Source: a phage
Length of the DNA: 35,820 bases
NCBI GenBank assembly: GCA_037431425.1
Contig: GCA_037431425.1_4129.3
Direction: 5' to 3' (one strand)
In this document: one piece after another, positions 1,314-28,206 of the stretch
How the letters are laid out: each line of letters starts with the position of its first letter
Numbering within the stretch: the stretch's first letter is position 1
Notes under the pieces: model-generated
Seen by the model: the letters and a program-made list of their open reading frames with translations, nothing else
What the model was told of the DNA's origin: nothing
The model's database searches: none
Translations under genes and position numbers: made by a program

Positions 1314-1716
1314 CTACTACTTTGGGTGAAATAATAACACCATTAACTGGTGTAGTATAATCACGTTTAACCACACGACCATTGTTCAATTTAATAATAC
1401 GACCCATATAAAGAGTAGCATATCCCTTACTAATCCCATCATCTACATAAATCATAAATGAATTGTCTTGAACCATATTAATTGCGTCTACTGGCTTAAC
1501 AGTATTTGGAATGTCGATACCACGGGTATCATACCAACACATGGAAACTTTGTAATATATATCACCATTATCATTGATGAGATCATACACGTTACTGGAA
1601 CGTTGACGGTTAATATATAAAGTTTCGGTTAATACCTTACCATCGATTTTAGCGACAGAAACTTTAATACCACCAATACCAAATGGCAATTTACCTTCAC
1701 TAGATATTGCTTTCAT
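1246..1716 (-). CDS. N-terminal domain (156 aa) of the Ig-like repeat protein; probable late/virion protein
   Basis: ORF with ATG at 1716 (reverse strand), SD-like AAGGAAAG just upstream, stop TAG at 1246-1248; a late-promoter box lies ~38 nt upstream. Confidence 0.6.
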   Translation of the reverse strand: MKAISSEGKLPFGIGGIKVSVAKIDGKVLTETLYINRQRSSNVYDLINDNGDIYYKVSMCWYDTRGIDIPNTVKPVDAINMVQDNSFMIYVDDGISKGYATLYMGRIIKLNNGRVVKRDYTTPVNGVIISPKVVALKVGSTQQLSATINPGSNSKL

Positions 1717-1753
1717 ATACTTTCCTTTATAAAATTGTATTGTATTGTTATAT

Positions 1754-1761
1754 TATTTATA
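1754..1761 (-). promoter_or_regulatory. T4-type late promoter box TATAAATA (reverse strand) upstream of the Ig-like gene
   Basis: Plus strand reads tatttata at 1754-1761, i.e. TATAAATA on the minus strand, ~38 nt before the ATG at 1716. Confidence 0.4.
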
Positions 1762-1896
1762 TTATAACAAAATTATTTTAGTATTAAAAAGGTGTTCGAA
1801 TGCTTCTTGAAATCTGGCTTGGACAGGTCAATCTTTGCCTTTAAAATGGAATTGTAAACTGCCTCTTAATATGATACCATAGTTTAAATGGTAAAT

Positions 1897-1932
1897 CAAT
1901 AAACTTAACAATAAACTTAACAAAAAACTTGA
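1897..1932. repeat. Three tandem 12-bp units in the divergent intergenic region
   Basis: CAATAAACTTAA repeated exactly twice, then CAAAAAACTTGA. Confidence 0.5.
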
Positions 1933-1962
1933 TACTACAGTAATAATTGTTCAGTTTTGTAC

Positions 1963-1991
1963 TTGACATAATTAATCAATTATTGTACTAT
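1963..1991 (+). promoter_or_regulatory. sigma70-like promoter (-35 TTGACA, 17-bp spacer, -10 TACTAT)
   Basis: TTGACA at 1963-1968 and TACTAT at 1986-1991, ~35 nt upstream of the first plus-strand gene. Confidence 0.4.
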
Positions 1992-2026
1992 TGTTAATGT
2001 TCCTTAACTCAAATCCGAGGTAATCA

Positions 2027-2632
2027 ATGAAACTATTCTTGAAAGAGATTGTACAAACCGTTGTTTTAATCGCTGCATTAAATTTTCCAGCAGCGGCAGA
2101 AGTTTCAAAAAAAGCATCTGTTCTTCTATTAAATGAACAGGTTGTGTCAATGGATGGTGAACTAAATGATAATACGGTACAAGAAGTAGAGCAGTTGTGG
2201 AAAGAAAAAAGATTTAAAATTTTAACAATTACATCACCTGGGGGTGATTTTGATGCTGGTATTAAAATGGCAAATTTTGTTAGAGACAATGGTATAAATT
2301 TAATTGTTTCTAAATATTGCAATTCGGCATGTACTGTGGTATTCTTTAGTGTATCCCCAGAAAAGCGATATATGACAAATCAATCAGTACTGGGATTGCA
2401 TAATATTTCAATCAAAAGTAACGTTAAAGATATGGATCATACTTTCGTATCTGTTAGACAACTATCATCATTTACTGAAGAAATGGCAACAAAAGTAGGA
2501 TTTTTATTTACACTATATTCAGCTAATGGTATTCCACCTAGCATTCTATATAAAGTTAGTCGTTCACGTGGTGAAGATGTTGTTATCTTAACAAAAACAG
2601 ACCTAATAAATTACGGTTCAGTCAATCCATGA
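2027..2632 (+). CDS. Secreted ClpP/S49-like (crotonase-fold) peptidase homolog
   Basis: N-terminal signal-peptide-like segment; motif ILTITSPGGDFDAG resembling the ClpP INSPGG region, with a downstream His; the position aligning to the ClpP active-site Ser looks substituted (NSACTVV). SD GAGG 7 nt upstream. Confidence 0.45.
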   Translation: MKLFLKEIVQTVVLIAALNFPAAAEVSKKASVLLLNEQVVSMDGELNDNTVQEVEQLWKEKRFKILTITSPGGDFDAGIKMANFVRDNGINLIVSKYCNSACTVVFFSVSPEKRYMTNQSVLGLHNISIKSNVKDMDHTFVSVRQLSSFTEEMATKVGFLFTLYSANGIPPSILYKVSRSRGEDVVILTKTDLINYGSVNP

Positions 2633-2700
2633 AAATAATTATAATAACAGGATGATTATGTTGTTCTTCCTTTGTTATTAACTATATCGGAAATATAACC

Positions 2701-2961
2701 ATGACAAACATCCAGAATTTGACATCTATTATTTTTTATGCTACAGTGGTGATATATGCTATTGTACTTATTTTAACAGTTTTTATATACAAAGATTACA
2801 AAAAAGGCTTTATTAATAGCACAACAATCAAGTTCAATTCTAAATTTAAAGAAATTATATTTTATGTTTTGACAACATCATATTTGTTGTGTATATTGTT
2901 ACTAGGGCCATTGATTTATATTTTATATACAACATTATTTGCAATTGGAGCTATTTTATGA
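2701..2961 (+). CDS. Small hydrophobic membrane protein
   Basis: 86-aa ORF with predicted TM helices; stop overlaps the next start (ATGA). Confidence 0.45.
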   Translation: MTNIQNLTSIIFYATVVIYAIVLILTVFIYKDYKKGFINSTTIKFNSKFKEIIFYVLTTSYLLCILLLGPLIYILYTTLFAIGAIL

Positions 2962-3554
2962 CATGTATTATTGCATACACTGACGGTGTAACTTCATTTA
3001 TTGCAGGGGACAAGATGGGGAGTGATGGTTTTACGAAATCAATCCAAACAGAGCCGAAAGTATTTGAGAAAGAATTCGTAAAGATTAGTGGTGATGACGG
3101 CTTGACTCGTACAAAAGATGTTATGACTTTTGGATTCACTACATCATTTCGTATGGGTCAACTGCTAACTTACAATTTAAATTTACCAGACCAAAATTCA
3201 AATGAGACGTTTCTACAGTATTTAGTACTGAAAGTTATTCCTCTTATTCGTCAAATGTTTAAAGACGAATGGGGTGCACGTGATACAACACAAGATGTTG
3301 GTGGTGGTCAATTTATTATTTTACACAATCATACGATTTATGAAATTCAGGAAGATTTTTCGGTTCTCCAGTCAAAATCAAGAGTTGCATCTGTTGGTAG
3401 TGGTACATATCATGCAATTGCAGCGATGCAAGCATACATTGAACTCGAAAAAGAAACTAACGTACAACTTCATGAACGTATCAAATCTATTTTCAAAATT
3501 GTCAGTGATAATGTGTCGAGTGTAAGTGAAGAGTTTGATGTATTAAAATATTAA
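2958..3554 (+). CDS. HslV/proteasome-beta-like Ntn-hydrolase peptidase
   Basis: Start at internal ATG 2958 gives MTCIIAYTDGVTSFIAGDKMG (compare HslV MTTIVSV..GHVVIAGDGQ, Thr2 nucleophile) and C-terminal VASVGSGTYHAIAAMQAYIE (HslV IAIGSGGPYAQAAARALLE). The track ORF starts earlier at 2889; ATGA overlap with the upstream ORF supports 2958. Confidence 0.65.
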   Translation: MTCIIAYTDGVTSFIAGDKMGSDGFTKSIQTEPKVFEKEFVKISGDDGLTRTKDVMTFGFTTSFRMGQLLTYNLNLPDQNSNETFLQYLVLKVIPLIRQMFKDEWGARDTTQDVGGGQFIILHNHTIYEIQEDFSVLQSKSRVASVGSGTYHAIAAMQAYIELEKETNVQLHERIKSIFKIVSDNVSSVSEEFDVLKY

Positions 3555-3569
3555 AATTATAAGAGAGAA

Positions 3570-3764
3570 ATGATGGCATACACAATTTATGAATGGATTT
3601 TGAGTTTTATTATAGTATTTTTTATGGTTGTAATTTACAATAATGCTAAATGCTTATATAGAGATTTAAAATCCAATGGTTATCATGCAAACAATAATTT
3701 AATGTATGCCTATCATATTGGAATCATTCTATTATTATCAATATATTTAATTGGTTTTATATAA
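3570..3764 (+). CDS. Small membrane protein
   Basis: 64-aa hydrophobic ORF with AGAGAG upstream. Confidence 0.45.
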   Translation: MMAYTIYEWILSFIIVFFMVVIYNNAKCLYRDLKSNGYHANNNLMYAYHIGIILLLSIYLIGFI

Positions 3765-3773
3765 GGATTACGT

Positions 3774-4526
3774 ATGATATCAGAAAAATTCATAAGTAAT
3801 GAGGGAAACAAGAGATTACTTATCATCTCAGGAGCAGGTCTTTCCGTTGAAAGTGGTATGGACCCATTTCGTTTCGATGATGGCCTATGGGATACATTTA
3901 AAATTAATGATGTATGTAATATTGCAAATTTAGATACAAAATATCATATTGTTCATTCGTTTTATAACACGCTGCGTGTTAAACTGGGTCAATGTGAACC
4001 AAATGCAATGCATTATTTTATAAAATCATTAGAGGAACAATATGGTGATTGTTTCCTTCATATGACTTCAAATATGGATGATCTTTACACCCGTATTGGC
4101 GGTAAAGAACTTAAACTTCATGGTAATTTATGTGAAGTGATAGAAAATTATAGTATTAATGGTGATGATTACAACATTGTTAACTGTGGTTATGAGCCAT
4201 ATATCCCAAAACATGATATTTTTGCTAAACCAAATGTAGTGATGATTGGTGAGTATCATCGTTATGTGGATGGTGTACGCCTACCAATATATGAAGAACG
4301 AAATAATGTCTTGAAATCCCTTGATGAAAATGATACAGTTATTGTTATTGGTAGCAGCGATACTGTTCTTGTATGGTCCCGATTGGTAGCATCATTGCCA
4401 TGTTATAGTGTCAATGTTAATATTAGAAAGAATGATAATGATTTTTTGTTTAATGAAAAAATTATCAAGCCAGCAACCAAAGCAATACCACAACTAGAGA
4501 CTATAATTAAGGAACGTATGAAATGA
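3774..4526 (+). CDS. Sir2-family (sirtuin-like) NAD+-dependent deacylase/NADase
   Basis: Sirtuin motifs GAGLS (GAGxS), TSNMD (TQNxD-like) and LHGN (HG); SD AAGGA upstream; only two Cys in the usual zinc-module position. Confidence 0.8.
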   Translation: MISEKFISNEGNKRLLIISGAGLSVESGMDPFRFDDGLWDTFKINDVCNIANLDTKYHIVHSFYNTLRVKLGQCEPNAMHYFIKSLEEQYGDCFLHMTSNMDDLYTRIGGKELKLHGNLCEVIENYSINGDDYNIVNCGYEPYIPKHDIFAKPNVVMIGEYHRYVDGVRLPIYEERNNVLKSLDENDTVIVIGSSDTVLVWSRLVASLPCYSVNVNIRKNDNDFLFNEKIIKPATKAIPQLETIIKERMK

Positions 4527-5074
4527 GTGTTAAAGAAGTTCCCTTTGGTGAATATGGTTCACGTGCAAATTTTGTATTCTGCTATTTCTTTGCAAGAGGA
4601 TGTAATCCCTACGAAAACTATGAGTTGAATGATATACCAGAAGTAAATTTAGTATTACTTCAACTACGATGGGATGGCCTTCTGGGTGGATGTGGTGGTA
4701 CAGTTGAAAGTACTGATATCTCATTAGAAGATGCGTTGCGTCGTGAAATACAAGAAGAAATGAACTACTATATTTTTGTTTCTCACTTAAAACCACTTAA
4801 AACGTTTGAAATTTACCCAGGTGCAAACAGTCATAGTTTCAGTTATGAAGTAACATATGATGAGTTAAAATACATTCGTGATGGGTATACAACTGCCAAA
4901 CATGCAAGTGCCGAAGTTGCTGGTGTAAATTTATGTCATATTTCTCGTTATTCTAAGGGACAAAATCGAGAAGCGGGATATAATAATCTTATGACACAGA
5001 ACTTCATCGGTACAGCAAAACACGAATTAGCGTATCTGGTACAAAAAGAGAACTTACTAATTAGCTATCTATAG
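4523..5074 (+). CDS. Nudix-like hydrolase (NudE-like, putative)
   Basis: GGTVESTDISLEDALRREIQEEMN resembles the Nudix box (REUxEE core), with atypical spacing between the Glu and RE; start overlaps the Sir2 stop (ATGA). Confidence 0.5.
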   Translation: MSVKEVPFGEYGSRANFVFCYFFARGCNPYENYELNDIPEVNLVLLQLRWDGLLGGCGGTVESTDISLEDALRREIQEEMNYYIFVSHLKPLKTFEIYPGANSHSFSYEVTYDELKYIRDGYTTAKHASAEVAGVNLCHISRYSKGQNREAGYNNLMTQNFIGTAKHELAYLVQKENLLISYL

Positions 5075-5084
5075 GAGTTTAAAA

Positions 5085-5405
5085 ATGTCTTACTCTATGT
5101 TTTTGGATGACATTCGTGATGCAAAACAATATTACCCTAATCAAGATATGGTAGTATGTCGTGATTTTAACAGTGCGTGTGAATATGTTGTTAAAAATGG
5201 AATTCCAGCATTTGTATCATTTGACCATGACTTGGGTGATATGAGTGGAGACGAAAAAACTGGATATTCTTTTGCTAAATTTCTTATTGATTATATGTTT
5301 GATAATAATATTAAAGAACCGTTTGAGTACTTTGTGCACAGTAGTAATCCAGTTGGTAAAGTTAACATTGAAACATACTTAAACAATGGATTTAATGCAT
5401 TATGA
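5085..5405 (+). CDS. Hypothetical protein, possibly a CheY/REC-like fold
   Basis: ORF with AGGAG SD; receiver-like spacing of acidic/Asp/Ser/Lys residues (FLDD..., VSFDHDLG, HSSNP, GK); weak. Confidence 0.5.
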   Translation: MSYSMFLDDIRDAKQYYPNQDMVVCRDFNSACEYVVKNGIPAFVSFDHDLGDMSGDEKTGYSFAKFLIDYMFDNNIKEPFEYFVHSSNPVGKVNIETYLNNGFNAL

Positions 5406-5704
5406 TTCAAACACATATTAAAAGTATCATTTGCACTATACTACTAGGTGTAGGAGTTCTATGGTTCAGTAATTATCACGAGAACACTAAGCGTACAAAT
5501 ATTCACTATAATACCGCAGAAGTTGTAAGTTTAGGACAATGTAGTGAGTCCAAATGTTCGTTCATGTACAAAACCAGTAATGGTGAAGTACGTAATGGAC
5601 TATCTAGTGAACCAGTTTCGATTGGTCAACTTGTTTACCAGGAGTGCTGGGAAGAAAAGGTTCGAGGTTCACGATGTTATGTTGAATACGAACCAAAAAT
5701 GTAA
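5402..5704 (+). CDS. Hypothetical membrane-anchored Cys-containing protein
   Basis: ATGA-coupled ORF; N-terminal hydrophobic helix. Confidence 0.5.
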   Translation: MIQTHIKSIICTILLGVGVLWFSNYHENTKRTNIHYNTAEVVSLGQCSESKCSFMYKTSNGEVRNGLSSEPVSIGQLVYQECWEEKVRGSRCYVEYEPKM

Positions 5705-5767
5705 TAATAACATGAGTCAATAATAATAGCCGGGTACAAGGATGTACTCACAATTCAAGGATGTTTT

Positions 5768-7207
5768 ATGAAAAAATATACAATTGACACAAACGTACTA
5801 CTATCTGATCCAAATGCATCTGTTGCTTTTGATGGTGCTGCAATCATTCTACCATTTACAGTACTGGAAGAATTGGATTCGATTAAGAGTCGCAATGTTG
5901 ATGTTTCACGTGATGCTCGTGTTGCGATTCGTAACATTGAAGCAATTATTGCAGAGGCATCACATAATGAGATTAGTTGTACTGGTGTTAATATTGCTGA
6001 TGTTCATACCAATATGAGTCCTGAAAGCAAATTGTTTGTTATTACAAACGAAGAAGCTGAAGCACTAATTCGTACTAAGGCAATTGAAGATAAAGTTCAA
6101 ACACTTCTCAAAAGTTCTGTACCAGATGATAAAATTATCTTAGTCGCTTTAGCAACTGATTCAGTACTGGTTACCCGTGATATCAATATGCGTATCAAGG
6201 CTCTTAGTTATGGAGTTGAAGTACAGGATTATCGTCATGATGTGGTTATCGGTGATAGCGATCTAATGCACGTAGGTCAACATCATCTCGATATCGATTT
6301 CTGGGCAGAATTCAGTGGGATTGAAAATGCTGAAATTAAATCTGAAAAAACAGGTCGCCGCCTGTATCATTATATCCCAACACATCTAATCAAAGATCTT
6401 CTTCCACAAAATCTTTGTATTGGTGACTATCTATATGATAATGCTGATGTGCTCTTTGTTTACGAAGGTCAGTCTGCAATCGAAGAAGATGATGGTAGTC
6501 TAACACCAGAAGATATTTTGGTCTTCCAAGATATTGGTCAATCTGTTGCATTACGTGCTAATGTATGGGATATTAAAGCGAAGAATGTCAAACAAGCACT
6601 AGCTATTAATAGTATTCTCGATCCCGATGTACATCTAACAGTTCTACTAGGTTCTGCTGGGACGGGCAAAACACTAATTACGATTGCTACTGCACTAGAG
6701 TTAGTTCTGGAAAAACGTAAATACGACCGTATTATCTTCTCTAAAACACAAGATTCACAGTTTGAAGATATCGGATTCTTGCCTGGTTCAGAGGCCGAGA
6801 AAGTGATTCCATTTTGTGGTCCAGCGATTGACGCACTAGAGTACCTACATAAAGATGATGCAAATCCACAAGGTAGCATTGAGGAAATCATGAAACGTAA
6901 TGTTATCCAGTTCAAAGCATTGAACTTTATTCGTGGTCGTTCTTTTGCCAATACAATTCTAATTGTGGATGAAGCACAGAACTTAACACCAGCCCAGCTA
7001 AAAACTGTCTTGACAAGAGCCGGAGAAAACTGTAAAGTAATCATACTTGGTAACCTAGCACAGATCGATAACAAGTTTATCAGTCCAGTAAACAGCGGTC
7101 TAACTTATGTAACTGAGAAATTTAAAAATTGGTCTGGTTGTCGTATCATTGAATTGGAAGGTGTTGTTCGTTCACCACTTGCTGAATTTGCTGAAGAAAA
7201 TATGTAA
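5768..7207 (+). CDS. phoH: PIN-domain / PhoH-like ATPase fusion (PhoH2/YlaK-type)
   Basis: N-terminal PIN-like YTIDTNVLL...; Walker A LGSAGTGKT; PhoH-like IVDEAQNLT and GNLAQID; SD AAGGA upstream. Confidence 0.85.
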   Translation: MKKYTIDTNVLLSDPNASVAFDGAAIILPFTVLEELDSIKSRNVDVSRDARVAIRNIEAIIAEASHNEISCTGVNIADVHTNMSPESKLFVITNEEAEALIRTKAIEDKVQTLLKSSVPDDKIILVALATDSVLVTRDINMRIKALSYGVEVQDYRHDVVIGDSDLMHVGQHHLDIDFWAEFSGIENAEIKSEKTGRRLYHYIPTHLIKDLLPQNLCIGDYLYDNADVLFVYEGQSAIEEDDGSLTPEDILVFQDIGQSVALRANVWDIKAKNVKQALAINSILDPDVHLTVLLGSAGTGKTLITIATALELVLEKRKYDRIIFSKTQDSQFEDIGFLPGSEAEKVIPFCGPAIDALEYLHKDDANPQGSIEEIMKRNVIQFKALNFIRGRSFANTILIVDEAQNLTPAQLKTVLTRAGENCKVIILGNLAQIDNKFISPVNSGLTYVTEKFKNWSGCRIIELEGVVRSPLAEFAEENM

Positions 7208-7211
7208 TATT

Positions 7212-7244
7212 GTATGGGACAATATGTCCCATACATGATATAAT
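7212..7244 (+). promoter_or_regulatory. Perfect 9-bp-stem palindrome overlapping a promoter (-35-like GGGACA, extended -10 TGaTATAAT)
   Basis: GTATGGGAC-AATAT-GTCCCATAC at 7212-7234 with no U-tract, followed by TGATATAAT at 7236-7244. Confidence 0.45.
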
Positions 7245-7276
7245 GCTGTTATCATAATACAGAAGGAGATAGTAAA

Positions 7277-7480
7277 ATGGCTAAACAACCTAAGAAAAAA
7301 GAACCAGTAGCTAAAGTTAAAAAAGCAAAAGTTATTACATCCACAGAACAACGTATGTACGAACAACGTATGTACGAACAACGTAAGAGTGAAACACTTT
7401 CTGGTCTACAAGCTCTTCGCAAACAAGGAGTTCTAACTCGTGCACAATATCGTAAGTTGGTAACACAAAAAGGTTATTGA
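7277..7480 (+). CDS. Small lysine-rich basic protein
   Basis: 67-aa ORF with strong SD (AGAAGGAGA); contains a tandem EQRMY-EQRMY repeat. Confidence 0.6.
   Translation: MAKQPKKKEPVAKVKKAKVITSTEQRMYEQRMYEQRKSETLSGLQALRKQGVLTRAQYRKLVTQKGY
7344..7373. repeat. Exact 15-bp tandem duplication inside the CDS
   Basis: gaacaacgtatgtac x2. Confidence 0.8.
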
Positions 7481-7582
7481 TACATTTGAAGTAATATTAT
7501 GGGGTTCTTAATAAATAACATTATAAGAATAATAATACTTTTTATTAAATTAAAAAGAACTCCATGTGTTATTTCAGTTTTT

Positions 7583-7610
7583 ATCCCTGTCGGTTGGCAG
7601 GGATTTTTTC
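7583..7610 (+). terminator. Rho-independent terminator
   Basis: ATCCCTG-tcggttgg-CAGGGAT followed by TTTTTT. Confidence 0.65.
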
Positions 7611-7705
7611 TATCTATGTATTGACAAAAGGATTAATTTATGAGAACATGTATAAAAGGCCGTATGACATTCCATTAGGTTATTTTTAACTTAAAGGAGA
7701 TATAT

Positions 7706-8263
7706 ATGTTTTTTGACCAAACATTTACGTTGTACCATGATTCTGGTAAAGTTGAGATTATTGAAAATCTATTACAGTACATTGCAGATCATGATGGTGT
7801 TGAACGTTTCCATAGTAAGATGAAATTCGATTTAGCTGAATTCAACAAAAAGAATCGTGAAACTTTTTGGAAGAACCGATTCTATTATGAAATGTTTCCA
7901 GAAAGGTTTGTTGGTTATTATCTTTGTACTGAGAAAGGTTTATTAGTATCTCCAGATTTACTTATGGGTGAATACATGGTTCTCTATAATGAGTACTGGA
8001 AAAATAAACGTAACGCTCGTGACATTGAGTGGAGACATAAGCGTTCGTACATGTACAAACACAACCACTCCCGATACAAACGTCCTAAGACTCAACAAGA
8101 GCGTCGTATGGCGTGTGCAGTACTGAAGGACGAGGGGGAACCTGAAATACGTGGAAGACGTAAGATGCGTTCATTACCATCGTATTGGAACGATATCAGA
8201 ACAAGACATAGTACCGGATGGAAATACAGTACTAAGCGTAAAAAACAATACAAAGGGGGCTAA
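7706..8263 (+). CDS. Hypothetical protein with highly basic C-terminus
   Basis: ORF with AAGGAG SD; Arg/Lys-rich tail. Confidence 0.6.
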   Translation: MFFDQTFTLYHDSGKVEIIENLLQYIADHDGVERFHSKMKFDLAEFNKKNRETFWKNRFYYEMFPERFVGYYLCTEKGLLVSPDLLMGEYMVLYNEYWKNKRNARDIEWRHKRSYMYKHNHSRYKRPKTQQERRMACAVLKDEGEPEIRGRRKMRSLPSYWNDIRTRHSTGWKYSTKRKKQYKGG

Positions 8264-8290
8264 TGCTCCCTATTTTATAGGTTAAACGTT

Positions 8291-8620
8291 ATGAGCAAAA
8301 TTAATGTTGATGTAGATATTGGTTATATTGAAATTGAACCGTGTAGTATTGATACAATGATTGACACTCTTAGTAAGTACCGTGCAGAGTACAGGGGGCA
8401 TATTAGTATTTCACCAGACGGTGGTTACGGTGGATTCCATGGATACAATGTGATTTGGTCCAGAGAAGAAACAGACGAAGAATATAATACACGAATTGAA
8501 GCTGAATCTAAAAGACGTGAAGAAATTGAACGTCAAGAAATGAAACACTTAATGAACAAGAAATCATTAAGTACCGAAGAGAAATATAAACTGCTAAAAT
8601 ACATCAAGGATTACATGTAA
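8291..8620 (+). CDS. Hypothetical protein
   Basis: ORF in the operon frame; weak SD. Confidence 0.5.
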   Translation: MSKINVDVDIGYIEIEPCSIDTMIDTLSKYRAEYRGHISISPDGGYGGFHGYNVIWSREETDEEYNTRIEAESKRREEIERQEMKHLMNKKSLSTEEKYKLLKYIKDYM

Positions 8621-10152: not shown

Positions 10153-10767
10153 ATGACTACATCTGAAAAGTACTGGTGGATTTTGGGCCATCCTAAATTC
10201 ATCAACGGAGATATGGTTCCCCCAAGGATTGATATCGAACCACATGATGTGTGTCCAATCACAAACCGCATTGAATCATTTAAAGCTCTGAATACAAAGA
10301 CACAATTTTGGGTAGAATTCATCTCACCTATGTACGTTGAGCAAGATGATGAATGGGTACAAGCACATGATTATGAGTTAGATTGCGGTGGTGATACTTA
10401 TGATGAGGCAATTGACGCACTATACAAAAATGTGCTAAACACTTATGGTGATTACACCCAACAAGAAGCAGACGATACGTTTAATAAGATCCATGCAGCC
10501 ATTTCTACATCATCAATTTACAATCCAGCAAAAACAGTTTGGGAAGAACGTCACGGGTGGAGTTCATCTGTAATTGATGCAGAAGCCAAAGAAACAATTC
10601 TCGAAGACATAAAAAATATAAAAAGTACAATAGAAGCCTTGCGTGAATTTATAAAGTCTTGTACAATAGAACAACAGAAAGAGGCAAAGATGCATTTGGA
10701 AAGTGAAGAATGTAAACTTTGGGTTCTAGAGAAATCTATTGAAAAGGGTATAGACTTAGACTTATGA
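10153..10767 (+). CDS. Hypothetical acidic protein
   Basis: ORF with GGAG SD. Confidence 0.55.
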   Translation: MTTSEKYWWILGHPKFINGDMVPPRIDIEPHDVCPITNRIESFKALNTKTQFWVEFISPMYVEQDDEWVQAHDYELDCGGDTYDEAIDALYKNVLNTYGDYTQQEADDTFNKIHAAISTSSIYNPAKTVWEERHGWSSSVIDAEAKETILEDIKNIKSTIEALREFIKSCTIEQQKEAKMHLESEECKLWVLEKSIEKGIDLDL

Positions 10768-11132
10768 ATAGTAAATTGGAGAAATTAATCGAAGAATTAC
10801 GCCAGATGCCGCCGATTGAACAAGTAGGTAATTATAAACGGTATCGTATTATTGCTCGTGCACTTGATAAAAAAGGTAGAGTACTGGCAACTCGCACAAA
10901 TTCTTATACACAGACTCACCCTAAGCAGAAAAACTTTGCAGTTAAAGCTGGAAGAAATGATGCAATATGGTTACATGCTGAAATAAGCTGTTTACTCGCA
11001 GCAAGGGCTGATGTTCACACATTATTAATTGCACGGGTTAGTAAAGATGGAATTCCCGTTTCTGCAAAACCATGTGAAATTTGCTCTTTAGCAATACAAG
11101 AATACGGAGTAGTTGAAGTAATACATACATAG
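10764..11132 (+). CDS. CDA-fold zinc-dependent deaminase-like protein
   Basis: HAE (LHAEISCLL) and PCxxC (KPCEICS) zinc-ligand motifs; ATGA coupling. Confidence 0.55.
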   Translation: MNSKLEKLIEELRQMPPIEQVGNYKRYRIIARALDKKGRVLATRTNSYTQTHPKQKNFAVKAGRNDAIWLHAEISCLLAARADVHTLLIARVSKDGIPVSAKPCEICSLAIQEYGVVEVIHT

Positions 11133-13898: not shown

Positions 13899-15704
13899 GT
13901 GCAATTGAATAAATTATACACGGACGTAACGAATTTTCTAAACCAGAGTAATACTGATCTTACAAATGAAAACGCAAATAAAGATGCCAAATGTGTAAAT
14001 ACACACAGAGATTTACTTGCTGGTATCTTATCTAAACATTATTCACAAGATGTTATTCCAAAGGATCTAATGCAGTGGCACAATGATGGATATGGTCACA
14101 TTCATGATTTGGACTACTATATTAGTCCATTAACAAACTGTTGTTTGGTTAATTATCCAGATATGCTTAAACATGGGTTTACTATCGGGTGTGCTAAAAT
14201 CGAAGAACCAAAGAGTTTTAGTGTAGCATGTACGGTGCTAACACAGATTGTACAAGCTGTTGCAAGTTCCCAATATGGTGGTCAATCGTTGGCTCACATT
14301 GATGTCGGATTGGAACCTTATGTACAAAAGTCTTGGGAAAAGTTATTAGAAAAACAAAAGAAATATAATCTAAGCGATGATTTTATTGAAGAAGAATTAC
14401 GAAAAGAAGTATATGATGGGTGTCAAACATTACTATATCAGACCAATTCAATGATTAGCACTAATGGACAAGCTGCATTCATTTCTCTTAGTTTAGGACT
14501 TAATACTTCCAAATTTGGAAAATTAATCACTGAACAGTACTTGAAAGTTCACGAGAATGGTTTAGGTAAAGATAAGATTACACCAGTGTTTCCTAAAGTT
14601 ATTTTCTTTCTACAAGATGGTATTAACATGAATGTCAATGATAGTAATTATGATCTTAAACAGTTAGCTATGCGTTGTGCATCAAAAAGAATCTATCCAG
14701 ATTTTGTTTCAGTACCATTAAATCATAAAGTGACGGGAAGTAGTAGCACTGCGGTAACACCGATGGGCTGTCGTTCATTCTTAGGAAAATGGGAAGATTC
14801 AAATGGAAATGAACAATACAACGGTCGCTTCAATTTAGGTGTAGTTTCTATCAATTTACCACTAATTGCTCTTGAAAGTGCCTCAGATGGAGAGTTTTTT
14901 GATAAAATAGACGAGCATATGAATATTGCATATCGTGCTCAGATGAACCGCGTAGAGCGTTTAAAAGGTACAAAAGCGAAACAGAATCCAATTTTGTTTA
15001 TGGAAGGTGCATTAGCACGTTTAAGTGCAGAAGAAACTATTGACAAGCTATTTTACAATGGTTATGCTAGTATTAGTATTGGTTATGTTGGACTTGTTGA
15101 ATGTTCGGAAATCCTCACTGGTTCTATCAGTAAGGAGTTTTGTATGTCAGTACTGAATTATATGAAAGTAAAATGCGATGAGTTCAAAAAAGAAAGTAAT
15201 ATTGCTTTTAGTCTATATGGAACTCCAGCAGAGTCGCTTTGTTATAAATTTGCACGTTGCATTGAAGCAAAATATCCTTCAGTTCTCAAACGAGATTTCA
15301 TTACAAATTCATTCCATCAACCAGTATGGGTTGAAAGTTCCGCTTTTGAAAAGTGGGATTATGAGGAAAACTTTGCGTATCTAAGCAATGGTGGGAATAT
15401 TAGCTATGTTGAAACACCAAACCTGGCTAATAATATACAAGCACTTGAAACATTGATCAATTATGCATATGATAAAATTCCATATTTTGGAATTAATCAG
15501 AAAGTAGATAAGTGTTTTGAATGTAATTTTGAGGGAGAATTTAGTGTAGATAAAAATGGTTTTCATTGCCCTGTATGTAATAACAGAAATGAGCGAACAA
15601 TGTCTGTTATACGTAGGGTATCTGGATATCTTAGTGCACCAAATAGTCGCCCGTTTAATAAAGGTAAACAAGCTGAAGTAATTCAGCGTATACAGCATAT
15701 GTAA
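13899..15704 (+). CDS. nrdD: Anaerobic ribonucleoside-triphosphate reductase (class III RNR)
   Basis: 601 aa; C-terminal glycyl-radical motif RRVSGYLS and zinc-ribbon CFECNF...CPVCNN; overall layout as in T4 NrdD; GTG start with AAGGAG 6 nt upstream; no intron interruption. Confidence 0.9.
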
Positions 15705-16959: not shown

Positions 16960-19659
16960 ATGGCAAATAAAATATATGGTGGTATTGATGTTACACACAA
17001 TGTCACAGTAAAAGGTAAGAGAAGTGCTCAGAGCATCAATGATGACGTATTTGATGAAAACGGTAATCTCACAATAGATGCATATACACAAGATGATATG
17101 TTAGAAATGGTTGGTATGTTACCAATTTCTCGTTATGGTACACAAAACTATCTACCTGCTGGTGTTAATGGTACAACAGTTGGTTCTTCAGAAAATGTGA
17201 ATTCCAGAAATACAAAATTATTTTTAGAAGATGATAACACTTTAGTAATGTTACGTCCAGGTACTAATGGTAGTACTCAAGGTGTTTATTATAGTTATAT
17301 GACCCAAGCAGTAGGTACAACAAATACAAGTCGTATGGTTAATACTACTCGTGCATATAAACCCAATTACTTTGGTGCAGCATACGCAGTTTATTTGTAC
17401 CCAAGTAGTAATGATATTACTTGCGGTTTAGTGAGAATGGAGAATACCGATGGTACATATGTTGATAAAGTTTTTGTGTCAGATAATAATGGTACATTGA
17501 ATGATGCAATGCACACTGGTATTATTCTATCAGATCATACAGCAGTACAACCTTTTGGTGCAATACAATTTGTTATTCGTGCAGAAGATGGTGCATTATA
17601 TTTTTTTAGTTTAGATACACCAAATAATACTCTTAAAATATCCGTCACTAAAGTTACTTTTAGTCCAAGTAATAACCCAGGTGGTGGTACTTATAGTATT
17701 ACTAGAATTACTGGTTGGACTACAAGAACTTTTTATAATGCAATGATAGCTGATGAGAACATTGTTCCTACGATGAAAATAAATTCAACAAATGCCAATG
17801 ATACTCCATACGTTTTAATTCCAAGCGGTATTATTGGGTTTGGTGTTTATATGACAGATCCAGATTTATATGTTGCACAGAAATCAGGTACATCTACATT
17901 CAAATTTAGATTATGTGGTGATATGTGGGTGAGTAATGGTAGATATGACATACGACCACAACATAGTTTTAGTATGACTTTTGATGTTGCAACGAAGCAA
18001 TGTGCACTCGATAATATGACAACGACTGCACCTGTTGCTGTTTATGACAATGGTTCTAGCATGAATGCAACTGGACCTTGCTTGACAACTGACCCATTTT
18101 ATCTTCATGCAGGTGCACGTAATATTTTCAGTAATTATTGCTATGTTCCATCAACAGGGGATGCGTTTTGTTCATTTTCACCAAACCTAGCAGAACCATT
18201 GAATGTATCATATGCAAAATACCCACCAAAATCTTTATTTGATTTGATGGATGTTAGAAGTGTGTCAGCAACTAATTTTATTAATGGTGTAGTATCACCA
18301 AGATTTGGTTCAGCAGTTGGTTCATACCAAGTAGGTGTAGAGTTATTACCAAATAACAGTACTAAACAATATTCAAGACGTTCTGGTGATGGTCGTTTTT
18401 TTCCATCCTATGCTGTTCATAAATCTACACCCAACTTTACATTCAAGTCGTTGAATTATGGTACAGTACCTGGTTATGAACCAACACCTGACCGAAATTT
18501 CATAACCACACCAGAATCACGCATTTTTATAAGTTCAATATCTGGTTCAAACGTCACTACTAATGGTGGTGTTTTGGTTGCTGACATTAGAACATCAACA
18601 CCAATTAGTTTTGATTATAAAGGTAATGTACTGAATAATGGTACAATCAGTATGTCTCAAGATATAATGAATGCTATTAGGAATTCAGAATTTGCTAAAG
18701 TTGCTGGTTCTTGGGATATATCCCCAGCATCAGTAAAAACATTATCAGTTTTCGTTCCACAACAAACTGATATTCCTGTTTTCGCGGTTCTTGCTGCAAC
18801 AACTAATTCCAGAGGACTATATATTCGTATGATTGAATTAGGTGTTAATACAAGAACAGGAGATATTACAACGTGGGCATTTAAACGTTTAGTACATGAA
18901 AGTGTTCAAGCTCTGGATTACAAAACTGATGCCGGATATTATCTTGATAGTGGAAGTATTGGTATTACTATATATGATGCTGGTTCTTTTTACTTCATTG
19001 GTGGTGGTATTCCAGGTTTCTTTCCTACAGTTGGTAATACAGCTTCACCTTTTTTTCGTGCTACTGTAGATAAAGCAAGTAAGCAATTTAATAATTTCCA
19101 TATAGCTGGTTATCGTCCCATCTATGCATTAGACGGTCAACCGTTCGCTTTACCTGGTATTGGATTTGGTATTCTTCAAAGTATAGATCTTCAAAACAAA
19201 ACCATTTTTAGAACATATGGTACTACATTAGAAGATTATAATGCATGGACTGATAAAGGGAATCCATTCATTTGCGTTGTTTCACAAGACGTTGCTCAAG
19301 GTTTTATTATATACTTCACCGAAGAGACACCAGTACTGATATCTGGTAAGCACTATACGTTACCAATATCAAATATTGATTTAACAAAAGTGAAAGCAAA
19401 TCCTGCGAATACTACATTTTATGTGTATATTAAATTAGTGCAGGGTATTGCAAAGTATCATATATCAACAACTGAATTAGCTGAAACTCAGTCAATATTC
19501 TGGATTGGTACAGTGAAAACTAATGATTTACAAATAACCGAAATTAATATCGTTAAACGTTCGCGTTTAGATCTGTTTGGTGCATCCTATGACGCTGCCG
19601 GAAGTTCATTCCCAGTTAGTTCTGGTTTTCCTTCAGGTTCTGGCAATGTGAATTGGTAA
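16960..19659 (+). CDS. Large late protein (899 aa), paralog A; probable virion fibre/adhesin-like protein
   Basis: Late-promoter-driven; N-terminal MLPISRYGTQNYLP and C-terminal module SQDVAQGF...SSGFPSGSGNVNW shared with the other two operon members. Confidence 0.7.
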   Translation: MANKIYGGIDVTHNVTVKGKRSAQSINDDVFDENGNLTIDAYTQDDMLEMVGMLPISRYGTQNYLPAGVNGTTVGSSENVNSRNTKLFLEDDNTLVMLRPGTNGSTQGVYYSYMTQAVGTTNTSRMVNTTRAYKPNYFGAAYAVYLYPSSNDITCGLVRMENTDGTYVDKVFVSDNNGTLNDAMHTGIILSDHTAVQPFGAIQFVIRAEDGALYFFSLDTPNNTLKISVTKVTFSPSNNPGGGTYSITRITGWTTRTFYNAMIADENIVPTMKINSTNANDTPYVLIPSGIIGFGVYMTDPDLYVAQKSGTSTFKFRLCGDMWVSNGRYDIRPQHSFSMTFDVATKQCALDNMTTTAPVAVYDNGSSMNATGPCLTTDPFYLHAGARNIFSNYCYVPSTGDAFCSFSPNLAEPLNVSYAKYPPKSLFDLMDVRSVSATNFINGVVSPRFGSAVGSYQVGVELLPNNSTKQYSRRSGDGRFFPSYAVHKSTPNFTFKSLNYGTVPGYEPTPDRNFITTPESRIFISSISGSNVTTNGGVLVADIRTSTPISFDYKGNVLNNGTISMSQDIMNAIRNSEFAKVAGSWDISPASVKTLSVFVPQQTDIPVFAVLAATTNSRGLYIRMIELGVNTRTGDITTWAFKRLVHESVQALDYKTDAGYYLDSGSIGITIYDAGSFYFIGGGIPGFFPTVGNTASPFFRATVDKASKQFNNFHIAGYRPIYALDGQPFALPGIGFGILQSIDLQNKTIFRTYGTTLEDYNAWTDKGNPFICVVSQDVAQGFIIYFTEETPVLISGKHYTLPISNIDLTKVKANPANTTFYVYIKLVQGIAKYHISTTELAETQSIFWIGTVKTNDLQITEINIVKRSRLDLFGASYDAAGSSFPVSSGFPSGSGNVNW

Positions 19660-24683: not shown

Positions 24684-25085
24684 ATGACTACAGTTGATGA
24701 TATTTACAGCACTATACGCAATATGAGCACAGATAGAAAAGTATTTGGTGATAAAGAAAAATCTAAGTGTTATGGTATTGATTCTTTTGATATAATTTCG
24801 TATGAGTACAACACGAATGGAAATAGTTCACTGAATATTGTCTGCCCTCGTGACCCAGAAAATAATTTTATGTATGTTGAAATTAATAATGATGGAATGT
24901 TTTTTACAAAAGTTTTTAAAGGTGGAATTAATTACGAAACGATTGAATGTATGAATGAAGAAACTTTCTTTCAAGAAGATACAATTATCAATTTAGGTTT
25001 TAGTTTTGATGATTATAAAACATTAGAACATGACTTTAATCGTTATTATAACGGTTTCTTAAAGGAGTTAACAATTTATCTATGA
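24684..25085 (+). CDS. Hypothetical protein
   Basis: ORF in the operon; ATGA coupling with the next gene. Confidence 0.5.
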   Translation: MTTVDDIYSTIRNMSTDRKVFGDKEKSKCYGIDSFDIISYEYNTNGNSSLNIVCPRDPENNFMYVEINNDGMFFTKVFKGGINYETIECMNEETFFQEDTIINLGFSFDDYKTLEHDFNRYYNGFLKELTIYL

Positions 25086-26314
25086 ATAACCAATATGTCG
25101 AACAAACAATAGTGAAACACTTGGCTGGGTCACAAGCCTACGGAACCAGTACACCTGAAAGTGATACTGATTATCGTGGTATTTTTCTTGCTAATAAAGA
25201 ATTTATTCTTACGCCATTCTATAAGGTTAAAGAAGTAGCTGATAAAAATGAAGAAGATACCAAATTCTATGAGTTAAATCAGTATTTAAAATTATACACT
25301 GATGCTAACCCTAATATTCTGGAATCACTATGGGTTGAACCAGAACACATTGTAGAAAGTACTGAGATTTATGACTATCTTCGTTCATTTAACCAAAAAC
25401 TTCTTAGTTCCAAGATTGCATTTTCATACACTGGATATGCATATAATCAAATTAAACGTATGACAAATCACCACGGTTGGATGGATAAAGAGCGTATTGC
25501 TGAAAAACGTTTAAATGAGATTTTAGAAGAACACCCAGTCGATGAGGTTCTTGTGTGGATGTATGATTCATTCCCACAATATCTTGTTGACCGTTTAGAT
25601 ACATCCAAATTACATCCATTTAATGCTAAAAAGATTGATTTTGAAAAATACATGCGTGATACGTCATTGCAGTTAGTTTCGAAAAATCCATTAAAGCAAT
25701 ATCATTTTGTAAGATTAGTGCATAACTACACTACTGATAAAATTCTAGATCGTGATTTCAATTTATTGAATTTTAACAATGGGTATGAACTAATTCATTA
25801 CGGAGAAAACATTTTTGCGATTATTAAAAATCCAAATGAAAGTACAATCAACGGTGATGGTTCATTGCGACATTTTTCAAAAGAGCGTAGTACTGAAGAG
25901 TTGAAAACCAAACCAGAACTAATTGTCAAATTTAACGAAAAAGAATATCAGGAAAATAGTGAGAATAGAAAAAGTTATCATAAATGGAAAGAAAATCGTA
26001 ATGCCAAACGTGCTATTTTAGAATCACTACACGGCTATGATTGCAAAAGTGCAATGCATACCATTAGACTATTGAATAGTGCAGAAGATGCATTACAAAG
26101 TGGGATTATTCAAGTTAAACGCCCAGATGCACAGATGTTGATGAATATTCGTAATGGTAAATGGAAGTATGAAGAAGTTTTAGAATATTTCGATGATAAA
26201 GTAAAATATATCCGTGATGTTCTATATAAGAAATCAGAACTTCCAAAAAAACCAGATATTAAATTAGCATCGAAAATTATCATTGATATCCGAGAGATGC
26301 AATGGTATAAGTAA
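25082..26314 (+). CDS. Pol-beta-superfamily nucleotidyltransferase (RlaP-like)
   Basis: N-terminal GSQAYGTSTPESDTDYRGIF fits the G[GS]-x(9-13)-DxD NTase signature; 410 aa. Confidence 0.6.
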   Translation: MNNQYVEQTIVKHLAGSQAYGTSTPESDTDYRGIFLANKEFILTPFYKVKEVADKNEEDTKFYELNQYLKLYTDANPNILESLWVEPEHIVESTEIYDYLRSFNQKLLSSKIAFSYTGYAYNQIKRMTNHHGWMDKERIAEKRLNEILEEHPVDEVLVWMYDSFPQYLVDRLDTSKLHPFNAKKIDFEKYMRDTSLQLVSKNPLKQYHFVRLVHNYTTDKILDRDFNLLNFNNGYELIHYGENIFAIIKNPNESTINGDGSLRHFSKERSTEELKTKPELIVKFNEKEYQENSENRKSYHKWKENRNAKRAILESLHGYDCKSAMHTIRLLNSAEDALQSGIIQVKRPDAQMLMNIRNGKWKYEEVLEYFDDKVKYIRDVLYKKSELPKKPDIKLASKIIIDIREMQWYK

Positions 26315-27588: not shown

Positions 27589-28206
27589 ATGAACAAATAT
27601 CATGTTTACTATAAGACTAATTTATCACTACTGGAAAAATTAAACCATAAAAGTACTAAGATTAAACACTACACATTAAATGGAATTACTTTTAAGTATT
27701 TTCCACAAAAAGTTCTTACATTTATTAAGAATCCAAAATGCATAGCATGTGGTATTGAAGCAACAGAAGTACGTATTGAACGTACATTTAGTTCTGACCC
27801 AATTTTCGGTAAACCACATTTAAATCTATATGCAGTATGTGGTCTTTATGAAGTTTTAATGACAGTTGACCATAATAATCTAGCATCAAAAGGTGGTCCA
27901 GATTTAGAGTCGAACTTTAATACTATGTGCTCCAGATGCAATCAACTACGTTCAAATAAAACTGAATCAGTTGATGAGTTTCTTGTGAAAGTTAAAGGTC
28001 GTAATCTTCTACAAGAACATATGAATAATTTCTTTAATGTGCAAAATGGACAAAAGAAAAATAGTATTGATAAATCAAAACTACTAGAAGAACGTAGATT
28101 ACAACAAGAATTATGGGAAACTGATCATTTATGGCATGTTCGAGAATTTGGTCGCCATATGAAAGCGTTAAAAAAAGAACAAAAGAAATTGAACAATCAC
28201 AATTAA
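27589..28206 (+). CDS. HNH endonuclease (free-standing homing-endonuclease-like)
   Basis: VDHNNLASKGGPDLESNFNTMCSRCNQ (H-N-H with flanking Cys pairs CIAC/CSRC). Confidence 0.65.
   Translation: MNKYHVYYKTNLSLLEKLNHKSTKIKHYTLNGITFKYFPQKVLTFIKNPKCIACGIEATEVRIERTFSSDPIFGKPHLNLYAVCGLYEVLMTVDHNNLASKGGPDLESNFNTMCSRCNQLRSNKTESVDEFLVKVKGRNLLQEHMNNFFNVQNGQKKNSIDKSKLLEERRLQQELWETDHLWHVREFGRHMKALKKEQKKLNNHN

Follow-up and report, generated by a model that had tools for sequence, protein, structure and literature searches.

The window analysed here, a stretch of phage DNA of 35,820 nucleotides, shares 99.6% identity with Escherichia phage ph0011, in which a Sir2 and a Nudix gene are already annotated. 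The two adjacent open reading frames singled out in the initial annotation (3774–5074) are both real, with Pfam matches clearly above the cut-offs, and they open a conserved, tightly packed jumbo-phage operon of five genes that continues with genes for a cREC (cyclic-phosphate-processing receiver-like) domain protein, a small membrane protein and a PIN-PhoH fusion protein (Table 1). The Sir2 stop codon TGA (4524–4526) shares bases with the Nudix start codon ATG (4523–4525), an AAGGA motif lies 8–9 nt 5' of that start, and the identical 4-nt overlap is found in the 121Q loci (L001 and L007). The two genes are predicted to be co-transcribed, and their translational coupling, as first suggested, is probable. 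The start of the membrane protein gene overlaps the end of the cREC gene in the same way, via an ATGA. The hairpin listed in Table 1, weak evidence from a consensus scan, is the first terminator-like element on the plus strand past position 2632, and a promoter scan of positions 1500–8300 returned 40 sites for 36.6 expected, which is the level of chance. The window holds no tRNA gene and no Rfam family and thus offers no candidate for a local RNA substrate. Upstream, the gene of an HslV/Ntn-like peptidase, whose match to the NCBIfam HslV model (E 0.003) is far under the family cut-off, precedes Sir2 also in L002, L009, L010 and L012; its membership in the Sir2 unit is uncertain.

Table 1. Genes and sequence elements of the Sir2–Nudix locus, with positions in the window
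Feature	Position	Strand	Length	Basis
HslV/Ntn-like peptidase, semi-conserved upstream neighbour	2958..3554	+		PHROG 1040
Sir2 ORF, zinc-less class III-like sirtuin	3774..4526	+	250 aa	Pfam SIR2, PHROG 2162
ATGA stop/start overlap of Sir2 and Nudix	4523..4526	+		sequence reading
Nudix ORF, NUDT16-type hydrolase	4523..5074	+	183 aa	Pfam Nudt16-like and NUDIX, PHROG 9999
cREC domain protein	5085..5405	+	106 aa	
Membrane protein, hydrophobic N-terminal segment	5402..5704	+	100 aa	PHROG 14661 'membrane protein'
PIN-PhoH fusion protein	5768..7207	+	479 aa	Pfam PIN_4 73.4 bits, PhoH 161.3 bits
Terminator-like hairpin with T-run	7583..7604	+		consensus scan, weak evidence

The order Sir2, Nudt16-like, cREC, membrane protein, PIN-PhoH is kept at 19 loci beyond the window, which comprise all RaK2-like jumbo-phage loci that extend far enough downstream, among them those of RaK2, GAP32, CBB, Yersinia phage fHe-Yen9-04 and Serratia phage BF, with Sir2 identities of 41–63%. 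Since the Sir2–Nudix pair is kept in 19 of these 19 loci, its adjacency is not due to chance, and the two genes are evolutionarily linked. Nine loci encode Nudix and cREC as a single fusion protein of about 300 residues; at 19 loci, the membrane protein gene separates cREC from PIN-PhoH, and PIN-PhoH lies downstream of the module at every jumbo-phage locus. Most relatives have genes for Nampt and NMNAT-Nudix directly upstream of the module, and an Acb1 gene next to it as well. Neither Nampt nor NMNAT was found in the window or in the 20 kb upstream in 121Q, and the best 60 Nampt tblastn matches, where other RaK2-like phages show >50% identity, include no Asteriusvirus. The Acb1/2H profile has matches in L005–L006 and L009–L022 and none in the window, L001 and L007. 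T5-like phages possess the sirtuin without Nudix and without cREC. In a scan of bacterial genomes, the cellular sirtuin relatives were all stand-alone, with at most 40% identity and no Nudt16-like or cREC neighbours, which leaves the operon without a cellular counterpart in that scan.

The Sir2–Nudix arrangement is already known, the genes being in public records and the neighbourhood in the literature: Iyer et al. described a sirtuin-2H-Nudix-cREC-PIN neighbourhood and predicted NAD+-dependent RNA repair (Viruses 14:1977, 2022, PMC9503650, section 3.7.3). The window carries the same set of sirtuin, Nudix, cREC and PIN in the same order on one strand (3774–7207). The prototype, Serratia phage BF (L013), shows 44% Sir2 identity and the fused Nudix-cREC described in that paper, whereas Nudix and cREC are separate genes in the window. 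Furthermore, the lineage of the window (Asteriusvirus, 121Q/ph0011 type) differs from the published neighbourhood by the absence of 2H/Acb1 beside the sirtuin and of Nampt or NMNAT upstream. The module is not covered by the NARP3 (PnuC + NadR) paper or by the paper on NAD+ in gut jumbo phages, and literature searches for Nudt16-like proteins in phages, cREC and phage or viral sirtuins returned no experimental work on any member of the module.

The first protein matches the SIR2 family PF02146 with 71.5 bits (cut-off 24) and carries all the motifs initially reported: GAGLS (residues 20–24, nt 3831–3845), TSNMD (residues 98–102, nt 4065–4079), where S replaces the canonical Q of TQNxD, and HG (residues 116–117, nt 4119–4124). 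Gly20, Gly22, Asn100, Asp102, His116 and Gly117 are invariant in 30 sequences of the clade, while the Q position is occupied by Ser, Ala, Thr or Gln. The four-Cys zinc module is indeed missing: the only cysteines between HG and KPNVV are Cys119 and Cys137, neither of which is conserved in relatives, and CxxC pairs are absent from the window protein and from all of the roughly 50 phage homologues. The loss concerns the whole phage sirtuin clade; the distant homologue P0042 retains CxxC...CxxC, and the Helicobacter relatives retain the zinc module too. The closest solved relative is CobB (E 4e-22, 27–28% identity). With the AlphaFold2 model (pLDDT 92), the 50 top Foldseek matches are exclusively CobB, Sir2Af, SIRT5, Sir2Tm and PfSir2A, and the superimposition on CobB, among the top matches, gives a TM-score of 0.76–0.85.

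Judged by sequence and predicted fold, the phage Sir2 is nearest to deacylases of the CobB/SIRT5 type, and no profile of a defence NADase matches it. It shares with CobB and SIRT5 the GAGxS motif, the Asn and Asp of TQNxD and the catalytic His, but it is devoid of the zinc cysteines, possesses a conserved (I/V)GY motif and carries an 11-residue hairpin inserted directly past the FGE substrate loop. Tyr64 and Arg68 sit in the class III anion-binding helix, with the Arg of the YxxR motif shifted by one position with respect to CobB and SIRT5, and the NCBIfam score of 92.6 is far under the CobB cut-off of 318. The initial annotation had read the lost zinc module as the mark of an NADase-type Sir2, an assignment that we do not retain: the PADLOC profiles give no Sir2 match at E up to 0.1, no defence SIR2 structure is present among the top 50 Foldseek matches, and the best matches are the deacylases CobB, Sir2Af and SIRT5. 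Zinc loss alone does not make a Sir2 protein an NADase.

The second protein matches Nudt16-like PF22327 with 67.3 bits (cut-off 27) and NUDIX PF00293 with 28.4 bits (cut-off 21.1), so that the Nudix box recognized by eye as REIQEEMN (residues 74–81, nt 4742–4765) is also present on formal profile alignment; PADLOC returned a weak generic match only. Arg74, Glu75, Glu78, Glu79 and Glu131 are invariant among relatives. The best profiles are Nudt16-like and PHROG 9999; they do not point to the family of T4 NudE, the analogue cited initially. In the PDB, the protein resembles human NUDT16 and X29 (E 3e-12), with 29% identity over about 140 residues and no gap through the Nudix box; the RExxEE core, the later acidic Glu131 and the C-terminal NFIG(T/S)A are kept, whereas the N-terminal 40 residues differ, Asn takes the place of the final Gly in the Nudix box, and the phage protein is paired or fused with cREC. 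On these alignments, it is an intact-looking hydrolase of the NUDT16/X29 family. Enzymes of this family act on RNA caps and on ADP-ribose at RNA or protein ends: X29 is a U8 snoRNA decapping enzyme, and NUDT16/X29 also hydrolyses protein- and RNA-linked ADP-ribose. PARP10 and TRPT1 (the human Tpt1) place ADP-ribose on phosphate ends of RNA, from which human NUDT16 strips it (PMC6582358). Most phage Nudix proteins were placed by Iyer et al. in the NudE and NadM clades, and the term NUDT16 has zero occurrences in their paper (PMC9503650).

The third protein, a putative phosphoesterase, matches the cREC profile PF20274 and has a receiver fold with conserved DD, DHD and HSxN residues and no histidine kinase partner. 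Sequence comparison indicates that the catalytic residues are intact in Sir2, Nudix and cREC alike. A PDB sequence search with cREC returned chance-level matches only, so a fold search had to be used, and neither cREC nor the 100-aa membrane protein has a PADLOC match. Within the divergent cREC loci sampled, three of four have an RNA ligase gene within 0–3 kb, and Sir2 is absent there. In a 137-kb phage (L041), an Rnl1-type RNA ligase, cREC and a homologous Sir2 follow one another as overlapping or near-adjacent genes. Of all partners of this sirtuin clade, cREC is the most conserved. RNA-repair genes are also found in the same genome region, with Rnl1 and Pnkp 16–18 kb upstream and an RlaP RNA-repair nucleotidyltransferase at positions 25082–26314 of the window. 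Sir2, Nudix and cREC are all acidic (pI 5.4, 5.2 and 4.4, respectively), and none of them has an obvious RNA-binding domain.

A possible NAD+/ADP-ribose handling module, as the pair was initially called, is a fair general label, but it embraces only part of the unit, cREC, the membrane protein and PIN-PhoH having been missed. The more specific proposal that the pair remodels host NAD+ pools or counters NAD+-depleting defences is not borne out: the sirtuin consumes NAD+ and therefore cannot by itself counter its depletion, and Nampt and NMNAT-Nudix are absent from the lineage of the window, for which reason an NAD+ salvage module was rejected as well. The context points more to the chemistry of RNA ends or of ADP-ribose derivatives than to NAD+ pool remodelling.

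Our preferred explanation, advanced tentatively and at somewhat less than even confidence, is that the operon performs NAD+-dependent RNA repair, in which the sirtuin would act on an RNA phosphate and Nudix and cREC would dismantle the ADP-ribose product. We infer every substrate and reaction step of this mechanism. The zinc-less sirtuin would bind NAD+, release nicotinamide and move ADP-ribose to a phosphate of damaged RNA, either the 2'-phosphate derived from an opened 2',3'-cyclic end or a terminal phosphate, in a step that would parallel the Tpt1/KptA reaction. The cREC protein would act on a cyclic or terminal phosphate by opening or removing it, either in the ADP-ribose product or at the 3' end of the RNA, and the NUDT16-type Nudix would cut the ADP-ribose pyrophosphate, free or RNA-attached. 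Consistent with such a function are the five-gene synteny, the Rnl1-cREC-Sir2 order in L041, the RNA ligases near divergent cREC genes, the NUDT16 family membership, the intact catalytic residues, the distribution of Tpt1 and the presence of Rnl1, Pnkp and RlaP in the region. On the other side stand the protein deacylases as nearest sirtuin relatives, the cellular relatives devoid of RNA-repair neighbours, the three acidic proteins without an obvious RNA-binding domain and the T5-like phages that have the sirtuin without Nudix or cREC. Moreover, the RNA ligase and Pnkp lie outside the operon in the lineage of the window, and since no 2'-phosphate remains after the action of a T4-type Pnkp, the need for a Tpt1-like step is not obvious.

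A possible functional analogue of such a pathway is the set of Tpt1/KptA RNA 2'-phosphotransferase, 2H cyclic phosphodiesterase and Macro phosphatase in fungal-type tRNA repair and splicing clean-up, where an NAD+ consumer likewise precedes processors of ADP-ribose cyclic phosphate. The two systems share no homology, a sirtuin fold standing in place of the ART fold and cREC in place of 2H, and their phage distributions seem complementary: KptA/Tpt1 homologues occur in 98 phage records, from other jumbo lineages, with no Escherichia among the name classes listed, which fits non-orthologous displacement. We consider it possible, albeit doubtful, that the zinc-less phage sirtuin is the first nucleic-acid-acting sirtuin and a non-orthologous replacement of Tpt1/KptA, with Nudix and cREC as dedicated partners. 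The sirtuin would then use NAD+ either to take away 2'- or terminal phosphates of RNA or to ADP-ribosylate them, and Nudix and cREC would process the resulting ADP-ribose cyclic phosphate or ADP-ribosylated RNA.

The main competitor of RNA repair is protein deacylation, which we hold to be a serious if rather unlikely alternative. The sirtuin would be a CobB-type protein lysine deacylase that rewires host or phage acylation early in infection, and Nudix and cREC would clear O-acyl-ADP-ribose, the former by cutting the pyrophosphate and the latter by attacking the ribose-phosphate fragment, either as a phosphatase or as an esterase; the Nudix enzymes Ysa1 and NUDT5 are known to hydrolyse O-acetyl-ADP-ribose. 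The best sequence and fold matches (CobB, Sir2Af, SIRT5), the presence of all NAD-binding and catalytic residues, the location of Tyr64 and Arg68 in the class III anion-binding helix and the stand-alone nature of the cellular relatives, which are sirtuins too, all agree with a deacylase. Yet the zinc cysteines, structurally required in canonical deacetylases, are gone from the entire phage clade, and the 11-residue hairpin comes right after the FGE substrate loop. In addition, deacylation does not explain the strict linkage or fusion to cREC, whose other contexts are RNA ligases, or the Rnl1-cREC-Sir2 arrangement of L041.

An improbable third reading, the closest to the idea of the initial annotation, is counter-defence against small NAD+-derived molecules. 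Nudix and cREC would break down immune signals of the host or metabolites that are toxic, for example isomers of cyclic ADP-ribose, ADP-ribose cyclic phosphate or ADP-ribose-1''-phosphate, while the sirtuin would ADP-ribosylate a host defence protein or interconvert ADP-ribose derivatives. In most relatives, the module lies directly 3' of Nampt and NMNAT-Nudix, the published NARP2 pathway pair, and downstream of an Acb1-family gene (PF23474), the family being named for an anti-CBASS protein; this company fits counter-defence equally well. Iyer et al. also maintain that soluble derivatives are the targets of most ADP-ribose-processing domains in phages (PMC9503650). However, the lineage of the window keeps the module without Nampt, NMNAT and Acb1, the sirtuin uses up NAD+, the proteins have neither a sponge nor a signal-binding domain, the wider context of cREC is that of RNA ligases, and neither Sir2 nor cREC matches a PADLOC or anti-defence profile.

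Two further readings appear very improbable. A plain NADase that depletes host NAD+, with Nudix destroying the ADP-ribose formed, would agree with the lost zinc module and the retained catalytic Asn and His. The SIR2 domains of defence NADases (ThsA, DSR1/2, SIR2-HerA, SIR2-APAZ) also combine a sirtuin fold and the use of NAD+ with the absence of the four-Cys zinc module. Unlike them, the phage Sir2 has no profile match, no sensor domain or partner (SLOG, HerA, pAgo), and is phage-encoded in an early-gene operon beside Nudix, cREC and PIN-PhoH; no defence SIR2 is found in its top 50 fold matches. A defence-type NADase was rejected on this lack of profile and fold similarity. The adjacent NAD+ salvage genes of the relatives argue against deliberate NAD+ depletion, from which a lytic phage with such jumbo relatives would gain little. 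The other reading, which we grant just as slight a chance, is 5' RNA cap editing, where Nudix would remove NAD, FAD or ADP-ribose caps and the sirtuin would use NAD-capped RNA or make 5'-phospho-ADP-ribose caps. The NUDT16 family is one of decapping enzymes by its Pfam name, NUDT16 acts on ADP-ribose-capped RNA ends (PMC6582358), and Tpt1 is described as producing 5'-phospho-ADP-ribose caps (PMC6182162), but the argument is purely analogical, no cap- or RNA-binding module is seen, and cREC would be left unexplained. A SirTM-type ADP-ribosyltransferase was rejected since no Macro partner is present and the catalytic His is retained, the latter judged against the general features of SirTM enzymes.

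If the prediction of NAD+-dependent RNA repair is true, RNA phosphate chemistry would be a new reaction class for sirtuins, and the cREC domain would receive its first biochemical function. The module would also represent a second, independent phage route for reversing the damage that host nucleases cause to RNA. The members of the module carried by E. coli phages (121Q/PBECO4/ph0011 group) make the question tractable, as their host allows direct testing.

The Sir2-family and Nudix ORFs flagged in the initial annotation lie exactly where it placed them and carry the motifs that it named: GAGLS (residues 20–24), TSNMD (98–102), and HG (116–117) in the sirtuin, and REIQEEMN (residues 74–81) in the Nudix protein. 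On formal profile alignment the Nudix box is recovered by the Nudt16-like profile and by the generic Pfam NUDIX profile (28.4 bits, cut-off 21.1). The two genes share an ATGA at 4523–4526, in which the Sir2 stop overlaps the Nudix start, with an AAGGA motif 8–9 nt 5′ of the overlap. The cREC ORF starts 10 bases past the Nudix stop, is preceded by an AGGAG motif, and shares a further ATGA overlap with the 100-aa membrane-protein ORF, which the PIN-PhoH fusion follows. On the + strand, a hairpin scan found no terminator-like structure from 2632 to 7583; a promoter scan near the operon gave no signal beyond chance level. The unit extends past the Sir2-Nudix pair to cREC, the membrane protein, and PIN-PhoH; "NAD+/ADP-ribose handling module" is fair as a general label, but the key partner, cREC, had been overlooked.

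Features of the sirtuin operon and other genes of the window
Feature	Position	Strand	Basis or remark
Clp-like protease gene	2027–2632	+	Pfam CLP_protease, 23.6 bits
HslV/Ntn-like gene	2958–3554	+	begins MTCIIAY; Met removal would leave N-terminal Thr
64-aa hydrophobic ORF	3570–3764		occupies Acb1 slot of relatives
Sir2 ORF, 250 aa	3774–4526	+	Pfam SIR2, 71.5 bits (cut-off 24); PHROGs concur
Nudix ORF, 183 aa	4523–5074	+	Pfam Nudt16-like, 67.3 bits (cut-off 27); PHROGs concur
cREC ORF, 106 aa	5085–5405	+	Pfam cREC_REC (cyclic-phosphate processing receiver domain), 80.5 bits
100-aa ORF	5402–5704	+	N-terminal hydrophobic segment; PHROG 14661 "membrane protein"
PIN-PhoH fusion	5768–7207	+	Pfam
Terminator-like hairpin with T-run	7583–7604	+	hairpin scan
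dCMP-deaminase-like ORF	10764–11132	+	24.8 bits, just under cut-off 25
NrdD-like anaerobic ribonucleotide reductase	13899–15704		121Q synteny
Two ~900-aa ORFs	16960–19659, 20271–23012	+	no Pfam match at E up to 0.01; 121Q counterparts hypothetical
RlaP (RNA repair pathway DNA polymerase beta family) nucleotidyltransferase, 410 aa	25082–26314	+	Pfam, 57.5 bits
HNH endonuclease	27589–28206	+	PF01844, 22.1 bits
Thymidine kinase	33075–33659	+	167.9 bits

Escherichia phage ph0011 matches the region at 99.6% identity, and 121Q (genus Asteriusvirus), PBECO4, and some 30 more jumbo phages (~350 kb) match it at ~88%; their records already label the two genes, one as Sir2-like or NAD-dependent deacylase and the other as nudix hydrolase. 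The sirtuin alignment supplied the pattern for a scan of viral contigs, which gave 50 loci; their ORFs were called and searched with our own profiles. Each RaK2-like jumbo-phage locus with downstream sequence (L002 and L005–L022, minus the incomplete L019; Sir2 identity 41–63%) has the order Sir2, Nudt16-like, cREC, membrane protein, PIN-PhoH, except that L002 is without the membrane-protein gene. Loci taken as RaK2, GAP32, CBB, Yersinia phage fHe-Yen9-04, and Serratia phage BF are among the set, and in nine loci (L013–L018, L020–L022) Nudix and cREC form one protein of ~300 aa. Just upstream of Sir2 (~0.2–5 kb), most relatives (L005, L006, L009–L022) carry NMNAT-Nudix, Nampt, and Acb1-family (2H-like) genes; the window, L001, and L007 have the Clp-like protease, HslV-like peptidase, and 64-aa ORF there instead, an HslV-like gene being found upstream of the sirtuin also in L002, L009, L010, and L012. 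The window lineage has lost the NMNAT-Nudix/Nampt/Acb1 block or never had it: phages of the 121Q/PBECO4/ph0011 type are not among the best 60 Nampt tblastn matches, where other RaK2-like phages exceed 50% identity. Among 80 bacterial loci that carry a related sirtuin, none has a Nudt16-like or cREC gene within 6 kb. In L041, from a 137-kb phage, an Rnl1-type RNA ligase gene (5875–6789) is followed by cREC (6786–7136) and Sir2 (7145–7906), and an RNA ligase gene lies 0–3 kb from cREC in three of the four divergent cREC loci sampled, where Sir2 is not present. Separately, the T4-like metagenomic phage contig L058 carries a compact RNA-repair cluster without a sirtuin (2994–6320): an Rnl2-type RNA ligase gene, an overlapping cREC, two small ORFs, and an Rnl1-type ligase gene, then a kinase-like gene.

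By sequence, the solved protein nearest to the sirtuin is E. coli CobB (E 4e-22), followed by Sir2Af and SIRT5, and the same proteins are the fold matches of its confident AF2 model (pLDDT 92.2; TM-score 0.76–0.85 with CobB). On NCBIfam CobB models it scores 92.6, far below the cut-off of 318. Residues G20, G22, N100, D102, H116, and G117 are invariant in 30 homologues; so are Y64 and R68, which lie on the helix bearing the class III YxxR motif. Compared with CobB, jumbo-phage sirtuins have an 11-residue insertion, modelled as a β hairpin, directly after the FGE substrate loop. The lack of the four zinc cysteines was correctly noted initially: C119 and C137 of that region are unconserved, and CxxC pairs are missing from all of ~50 phage homologues, which come from jumbo, T5-like (T5 among them), and rV5-like phages and bear (I/V)GY instead. 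CxxC...CxxC is retained together with IGY in P0042, which is a distant homologue, and in sirtuins of Helicobacter and Chthoniobacter, and the cysteines are lost also in chromosomal Marinobacterium relatives. Cysteine-less, IGY-bearing sirtuins with 36–40% identity to the phage protein occur in Marinobacterium, Oceanospirillum, and Haliea chromosomes (L062–L067, L070, L074, L077–L078); another Sir2-family gene lies 2–5 kb off in L062–L064 and L067.

Among solved proteins, human NUDT16 and Xenopus X29 are nearest to the Nudix protein (E 3e-12), with gap-free alignment across the Nudix box; the phage family keeps R74, E75, E78, E79, and E131 without exception. This family is small: when 1.84 billion cluster representatives were scanned in full with HMMER, 472 proteins matched at E ≤ 1e-3 and 5 at E ≤ 1e-30. 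Its top match, P0163 (295 aa), is a Nudt16-like–cREC fusion. In the distant members P0208, P0213, and P0260, the Nudt16-like domain is joined to a Ham1 ITPase or HD_4 domain, which hints that some members act on free nucleotides, not RNA or ADP-ribose. In the work of Munnur et al. 2019 (PMC6582358), human NUDT16 strips off the ADP-ribose that PARP10 or TRPT1 (the human Tpt1) has attached to phosphate ends of RNA. Under the RNA-repair reading taken up below, the NUDT16-type Nudix of the operon would split the pyrophosphate of ADP-ribose, either free or linked to RNA.

Iyer et al. 2022 (PMC9503650) propose that this distinct sirtuin clade acts in a KptA-like manner, using NAD+ to remove RNA 2′-phosphates, and also describe an RNA-ligase–cREC–sirtuin arrangement; the cREC domain was named in a 2021 jumbo-phage paper of the same group, and neither paper mentions NUDT16. 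We found no experimental study of a phage sirtuin, cREC, or the operon Nudix in the literature. This RNA-repair prediction is tentatively the best-supported explanation, because of the RNA-ligase contexts of the sirtuin clade and of cREC, the Nudix-cREC fusion, the documented action of the NUDT16 family on Tpt1-type products, the conservation of PIN-PhoH, further RNA-repair genes in this part of the genome (Rnl1 with Pnkp 16–18 kb upstream in 121Q; RlaP downstream, ~20 kb from the operon), and a distribution apparently complementary to that of KptA, which occurs in 98 phage records of other lineages, Escherichia not being among the listed name classes. Against it, Sir2, Nudix, and cREC are acidic (pI 5.4, 5.2, and 4.4) and have no obvious RNA-binding modules, T4-type Pnkp does not leave a 2′-phosphate, the RNA ligase lies outside the window's operon, and T5-like phages have the sirtuin alone, without Nudix or cREC companions.

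Also against RNA repair, the sirtuin's nearest relatives by similarity (CobB, Sir2Af, SIRT5) are protein deacylases; they favour the main rival, possible if rather doubtful, in which an ordinary deacylase has its O-acyl-ADP-ribose cleared by Nudix and cREC. The NAD+-salvage and Acb1 genes flanking the module in relatives would fit small-molecule counter-defence equally well; a role of the module in degrading small NAD-derived signals or toxins is considered improbable. Cap editing is very unlikely. A plain NADase is just as unlikely, since PADLOC defence profiles gave zero matches to Sir2 and no defence-type SIR2 is among the top 50 fold matches of its model; the "NADase-type" assignment is thus backed by no similarity measure (PADLOC, sequence, or fold), and NudE-like ADP-ribose hydrolysis and the countering of NAD+ depletion, also suggested in the initial annotation, are not favoured by the evidence.

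As a discovery the module is already known, because public phage records annotate both genes, and the neighbourhood and the mechanistic prediction appeared in print in 2022. Whether the sirtuin truly acts on RNA is a question that can be approached in an E. coli phage.
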